Shown: positions 8,892 to 42,825 of the stretch, one piece after another
How the letters are laid out: the number at the start of each line of letters is the position of its first letter
Numbering within the stretch: the first letter of the stretch is position 1
Assembly: GCF_003334305.1 (NCBI RefSeq)
Contig: NZ_QOWS01000018.1
Length of the DNA stretch: 64,000 nucleotides
Direction: 5' to 3' (one strand)
Source: Escherichia coli
GTDB lineage: Bacteria; Pseudomonadota; Gammaproteobacteria; Enterobacterales; Enterobacteriaceae
Translations under genes and position numbers: made by a program
Notes under the pieces: model-generated
What the model was told of the DNA's origin: nothing
Databases searched by the model: none
The model's input: the letters and a program-made list of their open reading frames with translations, nothing else

Positions 8892-9060
8892 AATGCCTGA
8901 TGCGACGCTTGACGCGTCTTATCAGGCCTACAACTCCGTTGAAATTGCTGGTTTTGTAGGCTGGATAAGGCGTTCACGCCGCATCCGGCAGCCGTGCCCA
9001 ACTGCCTGATGCGATGCTTGACGTGTCTTATCAGGCCTACTAGTCCGTTGAAAATGCTGG
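8892..9060. repeat. Cluster of REP palindromic units (BIME-like)
   Basis: Two near-identical copies of gcctgatgcgaCgcttgacgCgtcttatcaggcctac (8895-8930 and 9004-9040) flanking gtaggctggataaggcgttcacgccgcatccggcagc (8956-8992). Confidence 0.85.
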
Positions 9061-20492: not shown

Positions 20493-20577
20493 TTTTTTGC
20501 CGCAGGTCAATTCCCTTTTGGTCCGAACTCGCACATAATACGCCCCCGGTTTGCACACCGGGAATCCAGGAGAGTTC

Positions 20578-21588
20578 ATGTACTACCCCTTCGTTCGTAA
20601 AGCCCTTTTCCAGCTCGATCCAGAGCGCGCTCATGAGTTTACTTTTCAGCAATTACGCCGTATTACAGGAACGCCGTTTGAAGCACTGGTGCGGCAGAAA
20701 GTGCCTGCGAAACCTGTTAACTGCATGGGCCTGACGTTTAAAAATCCGCTTGGTCTGGCAGCCGGTCTTGATAAAGACGGGGAGTGCATTGACGCGTTAG
20801 GCGCGATGGGATTTGGATCGATCGAGATCGGTACCGTCACGCCACGTCCACAGCCAGGTAATGACAAGCCGCGTCTCTTTCGTCTGGTAGATGCCGAAGG
20901 TTTGATCAACCGTATGGGCTTTAATAATCTTGGCGTTGATAACCTCGTAGAGAACGTAAAAAAGGCCCATTATGACGGCGTCCTGGGTATTAACATCGGC
21001 AAAAATAAAGATACTCCAGTGGAGCAGGGCAAAGATGACTATCTGATTTGTATGGAAAAAATCTATGCCTATGCGGGATATATCGCCATCAATATTTCAT
21101 CGCCGAATACCCCAGGATTACGCACGCTGCAATATGGTGAAGCGCTGGATGATCTCTTAACCGCGATTAAAAATAAGCAAAATGATTTGCAAGCGATGCA
21201 CCATAAATATGTGCCGATCGCAGTGAAGATCGCGCCGGATCTTTCTGAAGAAGAATTGATCCAGGTTGCCGATAGTTTAGTTCGCCATAATATTGATGGC
21301 GTTATTGCAACCAATACCACACTCGATCGTTCTCTTGTTCAGGGAATGAAAAATTGCGATCAAACCGGTGGCTTAAGTGGTCGTCCGCTTCAGTTAAAAA
21401 GCACCGAAATTATTCGCCGCTTGTCACTGGAATTAAACGGTCGCTTACCGATCATCGGTGTTGGCGGCATCGACTCGGTTATCGCTGCGCGTGAAAAGAT
21501 TGCTGCGGGTGCCTCACTGGTGCAAATTTATTCTGGTTTTATTTTTAAAGGTCCGCCGCTGATTAAAGAAATCGTTACCCATATCTAA
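20578..21588 (+). CDS. pyrD: Dihydroorotate dehydrogenase (quinone)
   Basis: Track ORF begins at a TTG; trimmed to the ATG giving [21 protein letters not shown] (336 aa). Confidence 0.95.
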
Positions 21589-36947: not shown

Positions 36948-37577
36948 ATGAAAAGCCTCTCCTATAAGCGGATCTATAAATCACAAGAATACCTGGCAAC
37001 GTTGGGCACAATTGAATACCGATCATTGTTTGGCAGTTACAGCCTGACCGTTGACGACACGGTGTTTGCGATGGTTTCTGATGGTGAGTTGTATCTTCGG
37101 GCTTGTGAGCAAAGTGCACAGTACTGTGTAAAACATCCGCCTGTCTGGCTGACATATAAAAAGTGTGGCCGATCCGTTACCCTCAATTACTATCGGGTTG
37201 ATGAAAGTCTATGGCGAAATCAACTGAAGCTGGTGCGTCTGTCGAAATATTCTCTCGATGCAGCGCTGAAAGAGAAAAGCACGCGCAATACCCGGGAAAG
37301 ACTGAAAGATTTGCCCAATATGTCTTTTCATCTGGAAGCGATTCTCGGGGAGGTGGGGATTAAGGATGTACGGGCGTTACGTATACTTGGGGCAAAAATG
37401 TGTTGGTTGCGACTGCGGCAGCAAAACAGTCTGGTGACAGAAAAGATTCTGTTTATGCTTGAAGGTGCCATTATCGGCATTCATGAAGCTGCGCTCCCGG
37501 TGGCACGCCGCCAGGAGCTTGCAGAATGGGCTGACTCTCTTACGCCGAAACAGGAGTTTCCTGCGGAACTTGAGTAA
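36948..37577 (+). CDS. sxy: Competence regulator Sxy/TfoX
   Basis: 209-aa ORF MKSLSYKRIYKSQEYLATLGTIEYRSLFGSYSL. Confidence 0.92.
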   Translation: MKSLSYKRIYKSQEYLATLGTIEYRSLFGSYSLTVDDTVFAMVSDGELYLRACEQSAQYCVKHPPVWLTYKKCGRSVTLNYYRVDESLWRNQLKLVRLSKYSLDAALKEKSTRNTRERLKDLPNMSFHLEAILGEVGIKDVRALRILGAKMCWLRLRQQNSLVTEKILFMLEGAIIGIHEAALPVARRQELAEWADSLTPKQEFPAELE

Positions 37578-39693
37578 TCTGGCGTTGCAGACGACCAATC
37601 TCAGGCAGTAATGCAATCAATAATCCAACTTGTTGTACGACCAGAGGTTCTTTGCTGTCTGCCCGTGGTTCAAGTTGCTGCATCCGCTGTTTCAGGCTAG
37701 CTAATGCCTCATTGACGCGTTCTTCATCAGCAGGTTGATGATGTAACGCGTCATCAACATAGCAAACTGCGTCATCAAGAAACGCCAGAATTTCAGGATT
37801 AGTTAACTGCTCCCGGTGAGCACCGAGGGCTGAGATATAGCTGGTAAACGTATGGTTAAGGCACAGCAACCGAAACGCGGCTTCGCGAATTTGCGGGGTA
37901 ACGTTCGGTTCGCTGGACATATTTGATACCACCGACGCCAGTTCAGCATCACGGTTGTGTGCATCGCGGCGGGCAATACGATACGCCAGACGGTTATCAC
38001 GCCCCTGATGGTATTGCTCCAGTATGGCATCGAGATACCGGCAGTTGGCCTCTGTGGCGCGTTCGAGCATTCGCGGCAGATTGCGAAACTGCCAGTCAGG
38101 CCAGATGTAGCTCACTGCCGCCCACGCAATGGCACAACCAATCAGCGTATCGATTACGCGAGGTAACGCTACTTCAAAACCTTCACCCAGCAAGTTAAAA
38201 CACAGTAGCACCAAAAGTGTGATGAACATCGTTGCATGGGCATATTGCACGTTACGGAAGGCAAAAAAGAGCACGCCGGTAATAACCAGTAGCACCAGCT
38301 GCCCTTCCAGTGACGGTACAAACCACAGCACAGGAATGCCAATGGCGATACCGACCAGCGTACCAATAATCCTTAACTTCAGGCGGTGGCGCGTGGCGTT
38401 ATAGTTTGGCTGGCAGACAAACAAACTTGTCAGCAAGATCCAATACCCGTGATGCATTCCGGTTATCTGAATGATGGCGTAGCCGAAGCACAACACCAGC
38501 GACATTCTTACCGCATGACGGAAGAGGGCGGATTCCGGCGTGAAGTGACGGCTAAGACGCAGCCAGATATCACTCAATCCGTGCGGGCTATCATCAGCGA
38601 GCTCATTTTCGTCATTATTATGGGGCAGTGCCTGGGCCTGTTCTGATTCAATTGTTGCCAGTTGGGCATCAATGGCGCGTAAATTGTTCAGCAAAAATCC
38701 CAGTGTTTTAAGTAAATCGGCAGGCGCGCCGTTATCGCGCATCCGCTCCAGCGCAGCATCAATATGCGTAAAAGCGCGCTCAAAATGCGGATCATGTTGA
38801 TAAGGCTGACGCAGCAAAATACAGCGTGACAGTTGCTGGCACGCCTGGCCCTGCATCGACATCAGCCGCTGAAAACGGAACAGCACGTCGCTGTGGCGAA
38901 AATGTTCACGCAATGTTTGATACTGAATATGAGAAGAGCTGGCACGCTCGTGAATATCCTGTGCGACAAAGTAATAATGCAGCGTGCGACGCGTTCCCCG
39001 TTGACCACGATCGCCACGTAAGCGGGTCAGCAGCGAGAGTTTCGTCTGATTCAATGTCGCCATCAGCTGACCGTTGGCGAGAGCCAAATCGTACAGCGGT
39101 GCCTGGCTTTCATCTTCAATATCAGGATCAAACATGCGCGACTTGAGCTCAAGATAACGCGCCAGTTGTTCATAGCAACGCGCCAGGTTGTCCTGCAGCG
39201 GGCGGACCGGGAACAGCAGATGACCAATAAGTGTCAGGACGTTGTACCAGACGGCACCGGCCAGCAGATACATCGGCTGCTGATACCAGTGCTCATACAG
39301 TGATGTTCCCAACATAGTGTAAATGGCGATCAGCAATGCACCGAAGGCAATTGTTGCATAGCGTTGACCCAGACCGCCGAGCAAAATGAAGCCGCTGGTA
39401 GAGAGCGTTAAGCCAATCGCAAATAGCCAGGGCCAGGGAAACAGCAATTCTACTGAGGCCGAGGCGATAAAAAAGCAGAACAGCGTAATGATGAGGTTAC
39501 GCAAACGTCCCGCCAGTCGGTCATCGAGATCGGTCAGCGCCGCTGCCACCATCCCCAGCGTTAGCGGAATCGTCAGTTTTACATCACCCAGCCACCACGG
39601 AAACGCTGTGGTTCCACAAAGCGCAATAAAAATACGCGCGTAATACAGCCAGGCGCTGTTCCAGGTATAGCGTTTGAGCAAAGGACTTAGCAT
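37540..39693 (-). CDS. yccS: Uncharacterised multi-pass inner membrane protein
   Basis: Track ORF trimmed to MLSPLLKRYTWNSAWLYYARIF (717 aa); two hydrophobic blocks separated by a long soluble region; 38-bp convergent overlap with the sxy 3' end. Confidence 0.88.
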   Translation of the reverse strand: MLSPLLKRYTWNSAWLYYARIFIALCGTTAFPWWLGDVKLTIPLTLGMVAAALTDLDDRLAGRLRNLIITLFCFFIASASVELLFPWPWLFAIGLTLSTSGFILLGGLGQRYATIAFGALLIAIYTMLGTSLYEHWYQQPMYLLAGAVWYNVLTLIGHLLFPVRPLQDNLARCYEQLARYLELKSRMFDPDIEDESQAPLYDLALANGQLMATLNQTKLSLLTRLRGDRGQRGTRRTLHYYFVAQDIHERASSSHIQYQTLREHFRHSDVLFRFQRLMSMQGQACQQLSRCILLRQPYQHDPHFERAFTHIDAALERMRDNGAPADLLKTLGFLLNNLRAIDAQLATIESEQAQALPHNNDENELADDSPHGLSDIWLRLSRHFTPESALFRHAVRMSLVLCFGYAIIQITGMHHGYWILLTSLFVCQPNYNATRHRLKLRIIGTLVGIAIGIPVLWFVPSLEGQLVLLVITGVLFFAFRNVQYAHATMFITLLVLLCFNLLGEGFEVALPRVIDTLIGCAIAWAAVSYIWPDWQFRNLPRMLERATEANCRYLDAILEQYHQGRDNRLAYRIARRDAHNRDAELASVVSNMSSEPNVTPQIREAAFRLLCLNHTFTSYISALGAHREQLTNPEILAFLDDAVCYVDDALHHQPADEERVNEALASLKQRMQQLEPRADSKEPLVVQQVGLLIALLPEIGRLQRQITQVPQETPVSA

Positions 39694-39711
39694 AAAGGCC
39701 ATATTAGTGGA

Positions 39712-40158
39712 TTATTCAAAACGACGACGTGCATTGGCTTCACGCGCAGCTTGCGCCGTTTCTACCGATACCACGCGACGACCAACCGGCCATAGTGCAA
39801 TAGCGGCAATTTTAAAGTTCGCAATGCCGACAGGAATGCCAATGATTGAAATACATTGTGCGATGCCCGTTGCAATGTGCATCAGGCATAACCACCAGCC
39901 AAAGAAAATCAGCCAGAAAATATTCAATACCGTACCGCCAGTATTCAGCAGCACATTTTTGCCAGCCGGGTTCAGTTCATCGACATGAATAGCTTCATTG
40001 CCATAAGGCACCAGAGACAGTTTAGTGATCTCCCAGCAGGATCGTGTCAGCGGTAAGGTAAAAATCAGCATAATACTGACCAGAGTCGCCAACAGCCAGC
40101 CCAGAGTGGTGGCAAATCCGCCAAGCACAAAGTTCAGAATGTTCAAAACGGTACGCAT
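39712..40158 (-). CDS. yccF: Small uncharacterised inner membrane protein
   Basis: 148 aa, hydrophobic; 18 bp upstream of yccS on the same strand (probable yccF-yccS operon). Confidence 0.88.
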   Translation of the reverse strand: MRTVLNILNFVLGGFATTLGWLLATLVSIMLIFTLPLTRSCWEITKLSLVPYGNEAIHVDELNPAGKNVLLNTGGTVLNIFWLIFFGWWLCLMHIATGIAQCISIIGIPVGIANFKIAAIALWPVGRRVVSVETAQAAREANARRRFE

Positions 40159-40280
40159 AAAACCTCGCTTTACTGTGGTTTTCAGTAATGGGCGGCAATT
40201 GTAACGTTTTTTTGGGCTGGAGCACGTTTTCTCTGACGGTTACACTGATAAGAAATAATTTCGTGTGGATCTACAGAGTC

Positions 40281-42335
40281 ATGGAACTGAAAGCGACAAC
40301 GCTTGGAAAACGTCTGGCACAGCACCCTTACGATCGGGCGGTGATCCTCAATGCCGGGATTAAAGTCTCCGGCGATCGCCACGAATACCTTATTCCTTTC
40401 AATCAATTACTGGCGATTCACTGTAAGCGCGGTCTGGTATGGGGCGAGCTGGAATTTGTACTGCCGGACGAAAAAGTGGTGCGTCTGCACGGCACCGAAT
40501 GGGGCGAGACGCAGCGTTTTTACCATCATCTTGATGCTCACTGGCGGCGGTGGAGTGGCGAGATGAGCGAAATTGCGTCTGGTGTTTTACGCCAGCAACT
40601 GGATTTGATTGCCACGCGCACTGGAGAAAATAAATGGCTGACGCGTGAGCAAACCTCTGGCGTGCAGCAACAAATCCGCCAGGCTTTGTCGGCGTTGCCG
40701 TTGCCGGTTAACCGACTGGAAGAATTCGATAACTGCCGTGAGGCGTGGCGTAAATGTCAGGCCTGGTTGAAAGATATTGAAAGCGCTCGGTTGCAGCATA
40801 ACCAGGCGTATACCGAAGCCATGCTTACCGAGTATGCGGATTTTTTCCGCCAGGTCGAGTCTTCACCGCTGAATCCGGCGCAGGCCCGGGCAGTCGTTAA
40901 TGGCGAGCATTCTCTGTTAGTGCTGGCAGGTGCAGGAAGCGGAAAAACGTCGGTGCTGGTGGCCCGTGCAGGCTGGTTGCTGGCGCGTGGTGAAGCGTCC
41001 CCTGAGCAAATTTTATTGCTGGCGTTTGGTCGCAAAGCCGCTGAAGAGATGGACGAGCGGATTCGCGAACGGCTACATACCGAAGACATTACCGCACGCA
41101 CGTTTCATGCGCTGGCGCTGCATATTATTCAGCAGGGCAGCAAAAAAGTTCCGATAGTCAGCAAACTGGAAAATGATACCGCTGCCCGTCATGAACTCTT
41201 TATTGCTGAGTGGCGCAAGCAATGCAGCGAAAAGAAAGCGCAGGCGAAGGGCTGGCGGCAATGGCTGACGGAAGAAATGCAGTGGTCAGTGCCAGAAGGT
41301 AACTTCTGGGATGATGAAAAATTACAGCGTCGCCTTGCCTCTCGCCTCGATCGCTGGGTAAGTCTGATGCGGATGCACGGTGGTGCACAGGCAGAAATGA
41401 TTGCCAGTGCACCCGAAGAGATTCGCGATCTGTTCAGTAAACGTATCAAGTTGATGGCCCCGTTATTAAAAGCCTGGAAAGGTGCGCTGAAGGCAGAAAA
41501 CGCTGTCGATTTTTCGGGCCTTATTCATCAGGCGATTGTGATTCTGGAGAAAGGTCGCTTTATCAGCCCGTGGAAGCATATTCTGGTTGATGAATTTCAG
41601 GATATCTCGCCGCAGCGCGCAGCGTTGTTAGCGGCATTACGCAAGCAAAACAGTCAGACGACGTTGTTCGCCGTTGGTGATGACTGGCAGGCGATTTACC
41701 GATTCAGCGGTGCGCAAATGTCGCTCACCACCGCTTTCCATGAAAACTTTGGTGAAGGCGATCGCTGTGATTTAGACACGACTTACCGTTTTAACAGTCG
41801 TATCGGTGAGGTGGCAAACCGGTTTATTCAGCAGAACCCAGGCCAGCTGAAAAAGCCGCTAAACAGCTTAACCAATGGAGACAAAAAAGCCGTCACGTTA
41901 TTGGATGAGAGTCAACTTGACGCTTTGCTGGATAAGCTCTCTGGTTATGCCAAACCGGAAGAGCGCATTCTGATCCTGGCGCGTTACCATCACATGAGGC
42001 CTGCCAGCCTGGAAAAAGCGGCAACACGCTGGCCGAAGTTGCAAATCGACTTTATGACCATTCATGCCAGCAAAGGGCAACAGGCGGATTACGTCATCAT
42101 CGTTGGCTTGCAGGAGGGAAGTGATGGTTTTCCGGCTGCGGCGCGGGAGTCGATTATGGAAGAGGCGCTACTGCCACCGGTTGAGGATTTCCCGGACGCT
42201 GAAGAACGGCGGTTAATGTACGTGGCGCTGACCCGGGCACGCCATCGGGTATGGGCACTGTTTAACAAAGAGAATCCCTCTCCCTTTGTGGAAATACTGA
42301 AAAATCTGGATGTGCCGGTGGCGAGAAAACCGTAA
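40281..42335 (+). CDS. helD: DNA helicase IV (UvrD-like superfamily 1)
   Basis: Track ORF trimmed to MELKATTLGKRLAQHPYDRAV (684 aa); Walker A AGAGSGKTS. Confidence 0.94.
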   Translation: MELKATTLGKRLAQHPYDRAVILNAGIKVSGDRHEYLIPFNQLLAIHCKRGLVWGELEFVLPDEKVVRLHGTEWGETQRFYHHLDAHWRRWSGEMSEIASGVLRQQLDLIATRTGENKWLTREQTSGVQQQIRQALSALPLPVNRLEEFDNCREAWRKCQAWLKDIESARLQHNQAYTEAMLTEYADFFRQVESSPLNPAQARAVVNGEHSLLVLAGAGSGKTSVLVARAGWLLARGEASPEQILLLAFGRKAAEEMDERIRERLHTEDITARTFHALALHIIQQGSKKVPIVSKLENDTAARHELFIAEWRKQCSEKKAQAKGWRQWLTEEMQWSVPEGNFWDDEKLQRRLASRLDRWVSLMRMHGGAQAEMIASAPEEIRDLFSKRIKLMAPLLKAWKGALKAENAVDFSGLIHQAIVILEKGRFISPWKHILVDEFQDISPQRAALLAALRKQNSQTTLFAVGDDWQAIYRFSGAQMSLTTAFHENFGEGDRCDLDTTYRFNSRIGEVANRFIQQNPGQLKKPLNSLTNGDKKAVTLLDESQLDALLDKLSGYAKPEERILILARYHHMRPASLEKAATRWPKLQIDFMTIHASKGQQADYVIIVGLQEGSDGFPAAARESIMEEALLPPVEDFPDAEERRLMYVALTRARHRVWALFNKENPSPFVEILKNLDVPVARKP

Positions 42336-42366: not shown

Positions 42367-42825
42367 TTACTTCAGACGGTCCGCGAGATAACGCTGATAA
42401 TCGGGGATCAGAATATCGACCGCGTCGTTGAAATGCGGCGACTGGATTATGAAGTCTGCCGTTGCCACGTTGGTGGCGACCGGAATGTTCCATACCGTCG
42501 CCAGACGCAGCAAGGCTTTCACGTCAGGATCGTGCGGCACGGCATTTAGTGGATCCCAGAAGAAAATCAATACATCAATTTTCCCTTCTGAGATCAATGC
42601 GCCAACCTGCTGGTCACCCCCCATTGGGCCACTCAACATCGCGTTGACGTTCATGCCGGTCGCGCGGGAAATTAAGTTACCGGTAGTGCCTGTTGCATAC
42701 AGTACGTGTTGTTCCAGTAACGGTTGATGCCGTTCCACCCAGCTCATCAGCATTTGTTTGCAGTGATCGTGTGCCACCAGCGCAATATGTTTCCGCGCAG
42801 GTAAAGTGCGAGTCGTCAGTTCCAT
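42367..42825 (-). CDS. mgsA: Methylglyoxal synthase
   Basis: Track ORF trimmed to [24 protein letters not shown] (152 aa). Confidence 0.94.

Follow-up and report, generated by a model that had tools for sequence, protein, structure and literature searches.

The yccF-yccS locus of Escherichia coli: a putative ALMT-like organic-anion channel and its possible accessory protein

Proteins that contain a FUSC domain are only now being recognized as metabolite channels that resemble the plant ALMTs, as exemplified by Rv2571c and pyrazinamide resistance. Rv2571c (AKGC) of Mycobacterium tuberculosis has been modelled as an ALMT-like homodimeric channel and was proposed to be an alpha-ketoglutarate exporter; the arginine in its transmembrane (TM) helix 6 is conserved, essential, and intolerant of mutation (bioRxiv 10.64898/2026.03.10.710584). 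The plant ALMTs (ALMT1, ALMT9, and ALMT12/QUAC1; PDB entries 7vq3, 8hiw, and 7w6k) are homodimers of one-repeat chains. AaeAB and MdtNOP, which also contain FUSC superfamily domains, are listed as efflux systems for p-hydroxybenzoate (pHBA) and drugs (PMC8277102). Here we compare with these systems the membrane proteins YccF and YccS, which are encoded side by side in a stretch of 64,000 nucleotides of Escherichia coli DNA (contig NZ_QOWS01000018.1 of assembly GCF_003334305.1), referred to below as the window. The explanation that best fits the findings as a whole, and for which we see an even chance, is that YccS would be a single-chain, asymmetric, ALMT-like channel for the efflux of an organic anion, with YccF as a likely accessory.

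The gene yccF (positions 39712-40158 of the window, minus strand) encodes 148 amino acids with two YccF/DUF307 domains, and yccS (37540-39693, minus strand) encodes 717 amino acids, followed by a stop codon, when read from its conserved start. Both are members of the E. coli "y-ome" that are universal in the species and strongly constrained. Each of the 5426 complete E. coli genomes contained, in single copy, the 2.9-kb stretch around the pair, which is annotated as sxy, yccS, yccF, and helD. Purifying selection on both genes is strong: with respect to Escherichia albertii, the ratios of nonsynonymous to synonymous substitution rates (dN/dS) were 0.029 (yccS) and 0.035 (yccF), and more distant genera gave similar values. 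Because of this universal presence, the low dN/dS values, and family scores far above the respective cut-offs, we consider yccF and yccS real genes and not chance open reading frames (ORFs). We searched the open-access literature on yccS, yccF, yhfK, DUF307, PF03733, and PF12805 and retrieved only list entries and screens, with neither a substrate nor a mechanism, in agreement with the initial annotation, according to which neither gene has an established function. The genes, their families, the duplication in YccS, and the operon are already found in public annotation or in the literature. What we add, as hypotheses and not as a discovery, are the mapping of the arginines and the resulting asymmetry, the finding that YccF has no homologue of solved structure, and a linkage that is specific to one YccF subfamily. 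A specialist is unlikely to be surprised, and no long-standing question hinges on yccFS.

Architecture of YccS and its relation to ALMT channels

Curated NCBIfam bit scores served as cut-offs for family assignment (TIGR01666, 470.75; TIGR01667, 467.8; NF008739, 213; MdtO model, 821). YccS scored 1262.5 bits with TIGR01666 (YccS family putative transporter) and 1166.1 bits with TIGR01667 (YccS/YhfK), with profile positions 1-705 covered. In the Pfam scan of the 720-amino-acid ORF form, a FUSC-like domain was detected at residues 69-348 (E = 1.7e-114), FUSC_2 at residues 408-528 (E = 8.6e-29), and FUSC at residues 413-685 (E = 6.8e-10), all of which belong to the FUSC/ArAE superfamily (PF12805, PF13515, PF04632). 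By these profile matches YccS is a member of both the YccS/YhfK family and the FUSC superfamily. The only other NCBIfam match was to the MdtO equivalog model, at 23.7 bits (E = 1.5e-5), compared with its cut-off of 821.

We then aligned 18 YccS/YhfK sequences that share 22 to 96% identity and come from Enterobacterales, Proteus, Acinetobacter (two paralogues), Vibrio, Aeromonas, Neisseria, and Variovorax and include E. coli YhfK. The AlphaFold2 model built from this alignment had a mean predicted local distance difference test score (pLDDT) of 82.6 and a predicted TM-score (pTM) of 0.76. Together with hydropathy, the model divides the protein into two repeats. Repeat 1 consists of a membrane domain with six hydrophobic helices (residues 13-160; 39214-39657, minus strand), which overlaps the region with the Pfam FUSC-like match, and of a cytosolic bundle of amphipathic helices (residues 164-351; 38641-39204, minus strand). 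It is followed by an acidic linker (residues 353-370; 38584-38637, minus strand) that was modelled with low confidence (pLDDT below 50). In repeat 2, a membrane domain that again has six hydrophobic helices (residues 389-529; 38107-38529, minus strand) and carries the FUSC_2 match precedes a second cytosolic helical domain (residues 535-707; 37573-38091, minus strand). An hhalign comparison of the N-terminal with the C-terminal half of YccS gave E = 2.7e-4 over 298 colinear columns. Since the halves align colinearly over this length, YccS is best described as an internal duplication, and the segment between its two hydrophobic blocks is a folded domain. The initial annotation was thus right about the two hydrophobic blocks, and the search that it had suggested for an efflux-transporter-like fold was positive, in terms of both the FUSC-like and FUSC_2 domains and an ALMT-type fold. 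The "long soluble linker" that it had placed between the blocks has to be replaced by the structured helical domain at residues 164-351, which has a counterpart at residues 535-707; only residues 353-370 look flexible.

The plant ALMT anion channels are the only solved relatives of YccS. A Foldseek search of the PDB with the YccS model returned ALMT1 and ALMT9 structures as its top seven matches, all with a probability of 1.00, over about 365 columns, and with TM-scores of 0.46 to 0.55, as normalized to the target and calculated per ALMT protomer. All further matches had E values above 0.4, and the few among them with a probability of 0.5 to 0.7 were short PhoU-like helical bundles. No bacterial FUSC structure turned up in the sequence and fold searches of the PDB. 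The ALMT protomer fold, i.e., six TM helices and a cytosolic helical domain, is present in the predicted model, and each of the two YccS repeats shows this architecture. At the sequence level, the profile of the C-terminal repeat matched ALMT9 (7.6e-6), ALMT12 (6.3e-5), and ALMT1 (3.3e-3).

The likeness extends to the pore. The arginines in TM3 and TM6 of the ALMT pore have counterparts in repeat 2 of YccS, where R441 (codon at 38371-38373, minus strand) aligns with ALMT1 R80 and R512 (codon at 38158-38160, minus strand) aligns with ALMT1 R165. Both residues were invariant in 18 of the 18 YccS/YhfK sequences, down to 22% identity. In repeat 1, the position aligned to R512, which follows a conserved proline, is occupied by M, L, I, A, F, or T; invariant residues particular to this repeat are D57, K184, and E249. 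YccS therefore differs from the plant ALMTs in two respects, namely, (i) it contains two diverged repeats in one chain, whereas an ALMT is a homodimer of one-repeat chains, and (ii) only its second repeat keeps both arginines.

Among bacterial proteins, two comparisons are informative. Rv2571c is, like YccS, a FUSC protein without pump partners; it is predicted to contain six TM and six cytosolic helices in an ALMT-like arrangement. However, Rv2571c is a single-repeat protein of 355 amino acids that is predicted to form a homodimer and lacks the TM3 arginine, whereas the 717-amino-acid YccS is a double repeat with both arginines in repeat 2. E. coli YhfK, which is as uncharacterized as YccS, has the same two-repeat architecture, can be aligned with YccS from end to end (22% identity), and has every invariant residue in common with it, the two arginines among them. 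It differs in its genetic context, since yhfK is located 38 bp downstream of crp and no yccF-like gene adjoins it.

From these comparisons we infer a channel mechanism, an anionic substrate, and an outward direction of transport. YccS would contain two tandem ALMT/FUSC-type protomers in one polypeptide, each with six TM helices and a helical cytosolic domain, so that a single chain would mimic the dimer that is built from two chains in the plant ALMTs and in Rv2571c. The predicted central pore would be asymmetric: the C-terminal repeat would hold the equivalents of both malate-binding ALMT arginines (R441 and R512), whereas the N-terminal repeat would have lost the TM6 arginine and carry D57, K184, and E249 instead. 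Driven by the membrane potential, YccS would release an organic carboxylate anion from the cytoplasm in a channel-like manner, and gating may occur through the cytosolic helical domains. The proposal that YccS is an asymmetric, fused pseudo-dimer, one repeat of which has two recognizable pore arginines, is testable. If it is correct, it would explain the release of some organic anion by E. coli and, by way of YccF, give DUF307 a role.

Several observations weigh against a channel of this type. The profile of the N-terminal repeat did not match any ALMT sequence, and the Pfam ALMT model (PF11744) was not significant on YccS (E = 0.13, 11.6 bits), which is why we have not filed YccS as a member of the ALMT family. 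Furthermore, the FUSC members AaeB and MdtO are treated as energized pump components and not as channels (PMC8277102), and the open-access literature searched contains no experiment on transport by YccS or YccF.

Association of YccF with YccS across lineages

E. coli YccF is the name-giving member of the YccF/DUF307 family (PF03733; NF008739 to NF008742), which comprises 2246 representative clusters at 50% identity. PF03733 matched YccF at residues 4-53 (9.4e-9) and 77-127 (3.4e-18), and with 297.4 bits the protein exceeds the NF008739 equivalog cut-off of 213. Apart from PF03733, the Pfam scan of YccF returned one insignificant match to DUF5362 and none to DUF1656. Each repeat carries a conserved motif of the approximate form LN..W....GWW.L.H...G.....IIGIP.G...FK.A...L.P.G. 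In the AlphaFold2 model (pLDDT 94.9), YccF is a membrane bundle of four helices, to which two short strands and a C-terminal helix of basic character are added; no specific solved homologue was found.

The two genes are tightly arranged. As described in the initial annotation, two co-oriented genes for membrane proteins follow each other closely, are convergent with sxy (36948-37577, plus strand), with a 38-bp overlap of the 3' ends, and are divergent from helD; the ORF coordinates, the layout, and the predicted membrane helices bear this out. The helD start at 40281 (plus strand) and the yccF start codon are separated by 122 bp. The yccS ORF can be read from two ATG codons. The first is located 9 nt past the yccF TAA, at 39702, and gives the 720-amino-acid RefSeq/PGAP form that begins with MAFMLSPLL, whereas the second, 18 nt past the TAA at 39693, gives 717 amino acids. 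MLSPLL is the N terminus of every readable YccS orthologue outside Escherichia, and the MAF extension was seen in Escherichia only. Because the orthologues begin at MLSPLL, the 717-amino-acid start and the 18-nt gap are the conserved version, as the initial annotation had it, and the MAF extension (region 39691-39702) is probably not part of the true yccS start. The 18-nt spacer up to the MLSPLL start (39694-39711, minus strand) reads TCCACTAATATGGCCTTT and includes the Escherichia-only ATG (39700-39702). The spacer lacks a Shine-Dalgarno-like sequence for E. coli yccS, and the translation of yccS is therefore probably coupled to that of yccF. The spacer measured 15 to 19 nt in 16 Enterobacteriaceae loci, about 27 to 28 nt in two Brenneria-group loci, and 22 nt in Aggregatibacter; a value of 6 nt came from an error-prone Citrobacter amalonaticus assembly. 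The pair has the features of an operon, namely, the same strand and a short spacer, and a scan of the region found no consensus promoter and terminator-like matches at chance level only. According to the initial annotation, evidence against co-transcription would refute its reading; published strand-specific RNA sequencing (RNA-seq) points in the opposite direction, to a single transcription unit, with the transcription-unit plot showing yccF-yccS as one operon that converges on sxy (PMC4161252).

We studied the conservation of this arrangement by scanning genome contigs with a single YccS query, which provided 18 Enterobacterales loci; wider taxa came from metagenome contigs and from chromosomes labelled as plasmids in PLSDB. 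Many of these PLSDB "plasmid" records are in fact chromosomes of 2 to 5 Mb (NZ_OL790812.1, NZ_AP026896.1, NZ_CP119140.1, NZ_CP064203.1, and others), which is a caveat for plasmid statistics. Several representatives were on contigs too short to be informative on the neighbourhood. The order mgsA-helD-yccF-yccS-sxy-sulA was found at all Enterobacterales species loci (18/18) and in Yersinia. In Aggregatibacter, a member of the Pasteurellaceae, helD and sxy are absent, and mgsA, yccF, and yccS are co-oriented and adjacent, with gaps of 8 nt and 22 nt. The YccS-linked YccF proteins tested all passed the NF008739 cut-off (E. coli, 297 bits; Yersinia, 280 bits; Aggregatibacter, 242 bits), and the unlinked ones tested either belonged to NF008740, NF008741, or NF008742 or remained below this cut-off (Photobacterium, 116 bits; Rhizobium, 143 bits). 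There is thus an asymmetry in our sample: a YccF of the NF008739 type always occurred with YccS, and YccS often occurred without that YccF, as would be expected if YccF were a dispensable accessory.

A case of joint decay was encountered in an enterobacterial lineage represented by 84 sequencing-run blocks (locus L052, 4900-7306). In this lineage, yccF carries a frameshift and, starting near residue 41, is in part fused to yccS, and yccS itself is spread across three or more reading frames. The genes mgsA, helD, sxy, and ompA have stayed intact, and sulA was matched only in part. Disrupted yccS frames were also seen in the assemblies of Phytobacter massiliensis JC163 (L017, 6001-8131) and C. 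amalonaticus (L015, where helD and sulA are broken too). We rejected the fragmented yccS of loci L024 and L015 as evidence: as the neighbouring genes are fragmented as well, these breaks are attributed to assembly error or general decay, with sequencing error being likely in the Citrobacter case.

We infer from the linkage a partnership of the two proteins, in which YccF, a predicted four-helix bundle of two DUF307 repeats that would be translated directly before YccS, most likely acts in Enterobacterales and Pasteurellaceae as a nonessential accessory or modulator of YccS. The hypothesis is a bounded one, i.e., an optional accessory that is specific to the Enterobacterales/Pasteurellaceae subfamily. 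YccF looks optional and not like an obligate partner because YccS occurs without an NF008739-type YccF in Proteus, Vibrio, Aeromonas, Acinetobacter, and Neisseria.

The same distribution provides the arguments against any partnership. In Proteus mirabilis (L032, 4861-5001), the order mgsA-helD/yccS-sxy-sulA is kept with no yccF at the locus, and a tblastn search of the entire 4.09-Mb record gave no yccF match. In Vibrio campbellii, about 745 kb separate yccF from the mgsA-helD/yccS locus, and three more Vibrio genomes and Aeromonas caviae also carry yccF and yccS without linkage. In the Acinetobacter and Neisseria records searched, YccS was present and no YccF match was obtained. The adjacency in Enterobacterales could be inherited synteny, given that the whole mgsA-helD-yccF-yccS-sxy-sulA block is conserved. 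No YccF-FUSC fusion was found among the 8 YccF representatives inspected, which were the longest of 150, and the lineage sample is small.

These points lend weight to the alternative that YccF and YccS are functionally independent, that YccF has a role of its own, for instance in membrane homeostasis or as a small pore for ions or solutes, and that co-transcription in E. coli merely reflects inherited gene order. We regard this as a serious contender that falls somewhat short of an even chance. It gains from the breadth of the YccF family, many members of which have no FUSC neighbour: such members were seen in Photobacterium, Phreatobacter, Rhizobium, Enterococcus, Latilactobacillus, Parabacteroides, Tsukamurella, and uncultured taxa, and among larger groups the alphaproteobacteria, Firmicutes, Bacteroidota, and actinobacteria have a solitary YccF. 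YccF is also more conserved than YccS (86% versus 70% identity between E. coli and Brenneria). In addition, what is fused to YccF is unrelated to FUSC, since the tails of the 8 longest relatives consist of repeated CxxC zinc-ribbon-like motifs and coiled-coil or extracellular regions. On the other hand, the NF008739 subfamily adjoins yccS in every sampled lineage, including the Pasteurellaceae with their different flanking genes, and the short, conserved spacer, the lack of a Shine-Dalgarno sequence for E. coli yccS, and the joint decay in L052 all argue against independence.

The long YccF relatives deserve a separate comment. Relatives P0225, P0256, P0269, P0232, and P0144 have long C-terminal extensions, and one protein of 834 amino acids has a large extracytoplasmic region. 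Segments resembling SHOCT and GYF_2 were recognized in the tails by reading, and these labels do not come from a Pfam scan. We considered a Rosetta-stone link through YccF-FUSC fusion and rejected it, as the inspected tails were not FUSC. Judged from such architectures, DUF307 appears to be a general membrane anchor or module.

Returning to YccF as an accessory of YccS, a more specific version can be formulated, in which the NF008739-type YccF would be a dedicated gating or stabilizing subunit and YccF and YccS would together constitute a two-component overflow valve for a carboxylate of central metabolism, tied to methylglyoxal or overflow metabolism. This version draws on mgsA (42367-42825 of the window), which in Vibrio, Enterobacterales, and Pasteurellaceae is no more than two genes away from yccS; the gene arrangement in Aggregatibacter suggests that mgsA-yccF-yccS may be a single operon there, and a link of YccFS to methylglyoxal or overflow metabolism is possible on these grounds. 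We consider the complete valve model improbable. If true, it would provide the first function for DUF307, a family with more than 2000 clusters and no solved homologue, and the first example from bacteria of an ALMT-type channel that has an auxiliary subunit.

YccS and the tripartite FUSC pumps

The second alternative concerns the transport mode. YccS could be a pump of the ArAE/FUSC type that is driven by the proton motive force and exports aromatic or xenobiotic carboxylic acids; it would then resemble AaeB (p-hydroxybenzoate), FusC (fusaric acid), or MdtO and would not be a channel. YccS has FUSC Pfam domains in common with these proteins, and its weak match to MdtO (E = 1.5e-5) and the efflux systems listed for AaeAB and MdtNOP are compatible with such a role, as is the inclusion of yccS, with no function reference, in a table of transporter-gene knockouts used in an uptake screen for cationic carbocyanine dyes (PMC6704527). 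The operons of AaeXAB/MdtNOP/FusC-type systems, moreover, pair a small membrane protein (AaeX) with the FUSC component, which recalls the yccF-yccS pair. However, YccF belongs to DUF307 and not, like AaeX, to DUF1656, and the MdtO score of 23.7 bits is far below the cut-off of 821.

The gene neighbourhoods provide a further argument. AaeXAB/MdtNOP/FusC-type systems include a membrane-fusion protein and, in many cases, an outer-membrane factor; neither was found at yccFS. According to annotation, no gene for either component adjoins yccS in E. coli, Yersinia, and Acinetobacter, and the same was found with Pfam in Aggregatibacter and, for Aeromonas and Neisseria, among the nearest neighbouring ORFs that were checked. 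The ORFs that flank yccS in Variovorax gave no NCBIfam match, and the Proteus and Vibrio loci, which keep the mgsA-helD/yccS synteny, were checked for the E. coli neighbour genes only. Wherever flanking genes could be named, there was thus no membrane-fusion, outer-membrane-factor, or AaeX-like (DUF1656) gene beside yccS. Because no fusion-protein gene was found adjoining yccS and the MdtO model does not apply, we conclude that YccS is not a tripartite ArAE pump. The pump interpretation in general is unlikely in our view, as the sole solved relatives of YccS are channels and Rv2571c, the one bacterial FUSC protein for which functional data have recently become available, has also been described as such.

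Transcription of yccFS and the overlap with sxy

A consensus scan of the region detected no sigma-70 promoter, and terminator-like sites occurred only at chance level. Phylogenetic footprinting over 10 species revealed a conserved block in the yccF-helD intergenic region (40196-40247; CAGTGTAACCGTCAGAGAAAACGTGCTCCAGCCCAAAAAAACGTTACAATTG in the minus-strand reading). This block contains a candidate -10 element of the yccFS promoter, TACAAT (40198-40203, minus strand), 39 nt upstream of the yccF ATG, which was called from the cross-species footprint alone, and the divergent helD promoter is probably on the other strand of the same block. A Shine-Dalgarno sequence, GAGG (40163-40166, minus strand), precedes the yccF ATG by 4 nt. 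A yccF promoter fusion showed weak activity that was independent of FNR (Grainger et al., PMC1802558). Overall, yccF-yccS would be a two-gene inner-membrane operon with weak, constitutive expression.

Two candidate regulators were considered and rejected. The published FNR site from chromatin immunoprecipitation (ChIP), AGTAATTGATTGAAAGGAATAAGG, has been attributed to yccF/helD and maps to 40388-40411. This position is within helD, about 110 bp into its coding sequence, and is 230 bp upstream of the yccF start codon; neither the yccF nor the helD promoter was affected by FNR (PMC1802558). With the ChIP peak within helD and the yccF fusion being FNR independent, control of yccFS by FNR was discarded. 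Similarly, yccF has been listed among SOS genes, yet its transcript was not induced, with log2 changes of 0.05 to -1.05 (PMC11002266). SOS control was thus discarded as well, also in view of the fact that the sole LexA-like sequence upstream, CTG-N7-CAG (approximately 40172-40184), is wrongly spaced.

At the other end of the operon, the coding sequences of yccS and sxy overlap convergently by 38 bp (37540-37577), which leaves no space for a terminator between the genes, and sxy-yccS has been listed among 165 convergent excludons (PMC12288877). Across Enterobacterales, the ends of the two coding sequences are separated by 129 bp at one extreme (Proteus) and overlap by about 65 bp at the other. 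No overlap exists in Phytobacter, Kosakonia, and Brenneria, and the 38-bp overlap is limited to Escherichia and a few close relatives; the C-terminal tails of both YccS and Sxy are poorly conserved. As its length varies among species, the overlap is not a conserved design. That the locus would have a mainly regulatory role, in which read-through from yccFS into the 3' end of sxy hampers the competence co-activator Sxy and the proteins are secondary, finds some backing in the convergent ends with no terminator between them, the excludon list, and the published convergence of the operons (PMC4161252) but is highly improbable, given that the overlap is not conserved, that sxy is not beside yccS in Aggregatibacter, Vibrio, Acinetobacter, and Neisseria, and that strong purifying selection on both proteins shows that these are themselves the selected function.

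Genes of the YccS family were recurrently observed near competence-related genes. In E. coli, yccS abuts sxy, which encodes the CRP-S co-activator, and yhfK is near crp (K-12 positions 3486120-3488893). In Neisseria gonorrhoeae (L035, 2451-7148), yccS directly follows two genes for ATPases of the PilT/PilU family (TIGR01420), presumably pilT-pilU. This pattern, which is missing in Aggregatibacter, Vibrio, and Acinetobacter, may be coincidental. A gene with a YccF domain was also found to be convergent with a TfoX/Sxy-family gene at a distance of about 300 bp in Enterococcus gilvus and Enterococcus raffinosus (L045, 4001-4923; L051, 4001-4947). A YccF-TfoX link was rejected as a probable lineage-specific coincidence, since the arrangement does not occur in Enterococcus faecium, Latilactobacillus, and Tsukamurella. 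Finally, a scan of the whole window with Rfam at the gathering threshold returned no match in or near yccFS; the matches obtained were the PyrD leader (20510-20583), naRNA4, a nucleoid-associated RNA derived from repetitive extragenic palindromic (REP) elements (8959-9037), and one tRNA (47438-47522).

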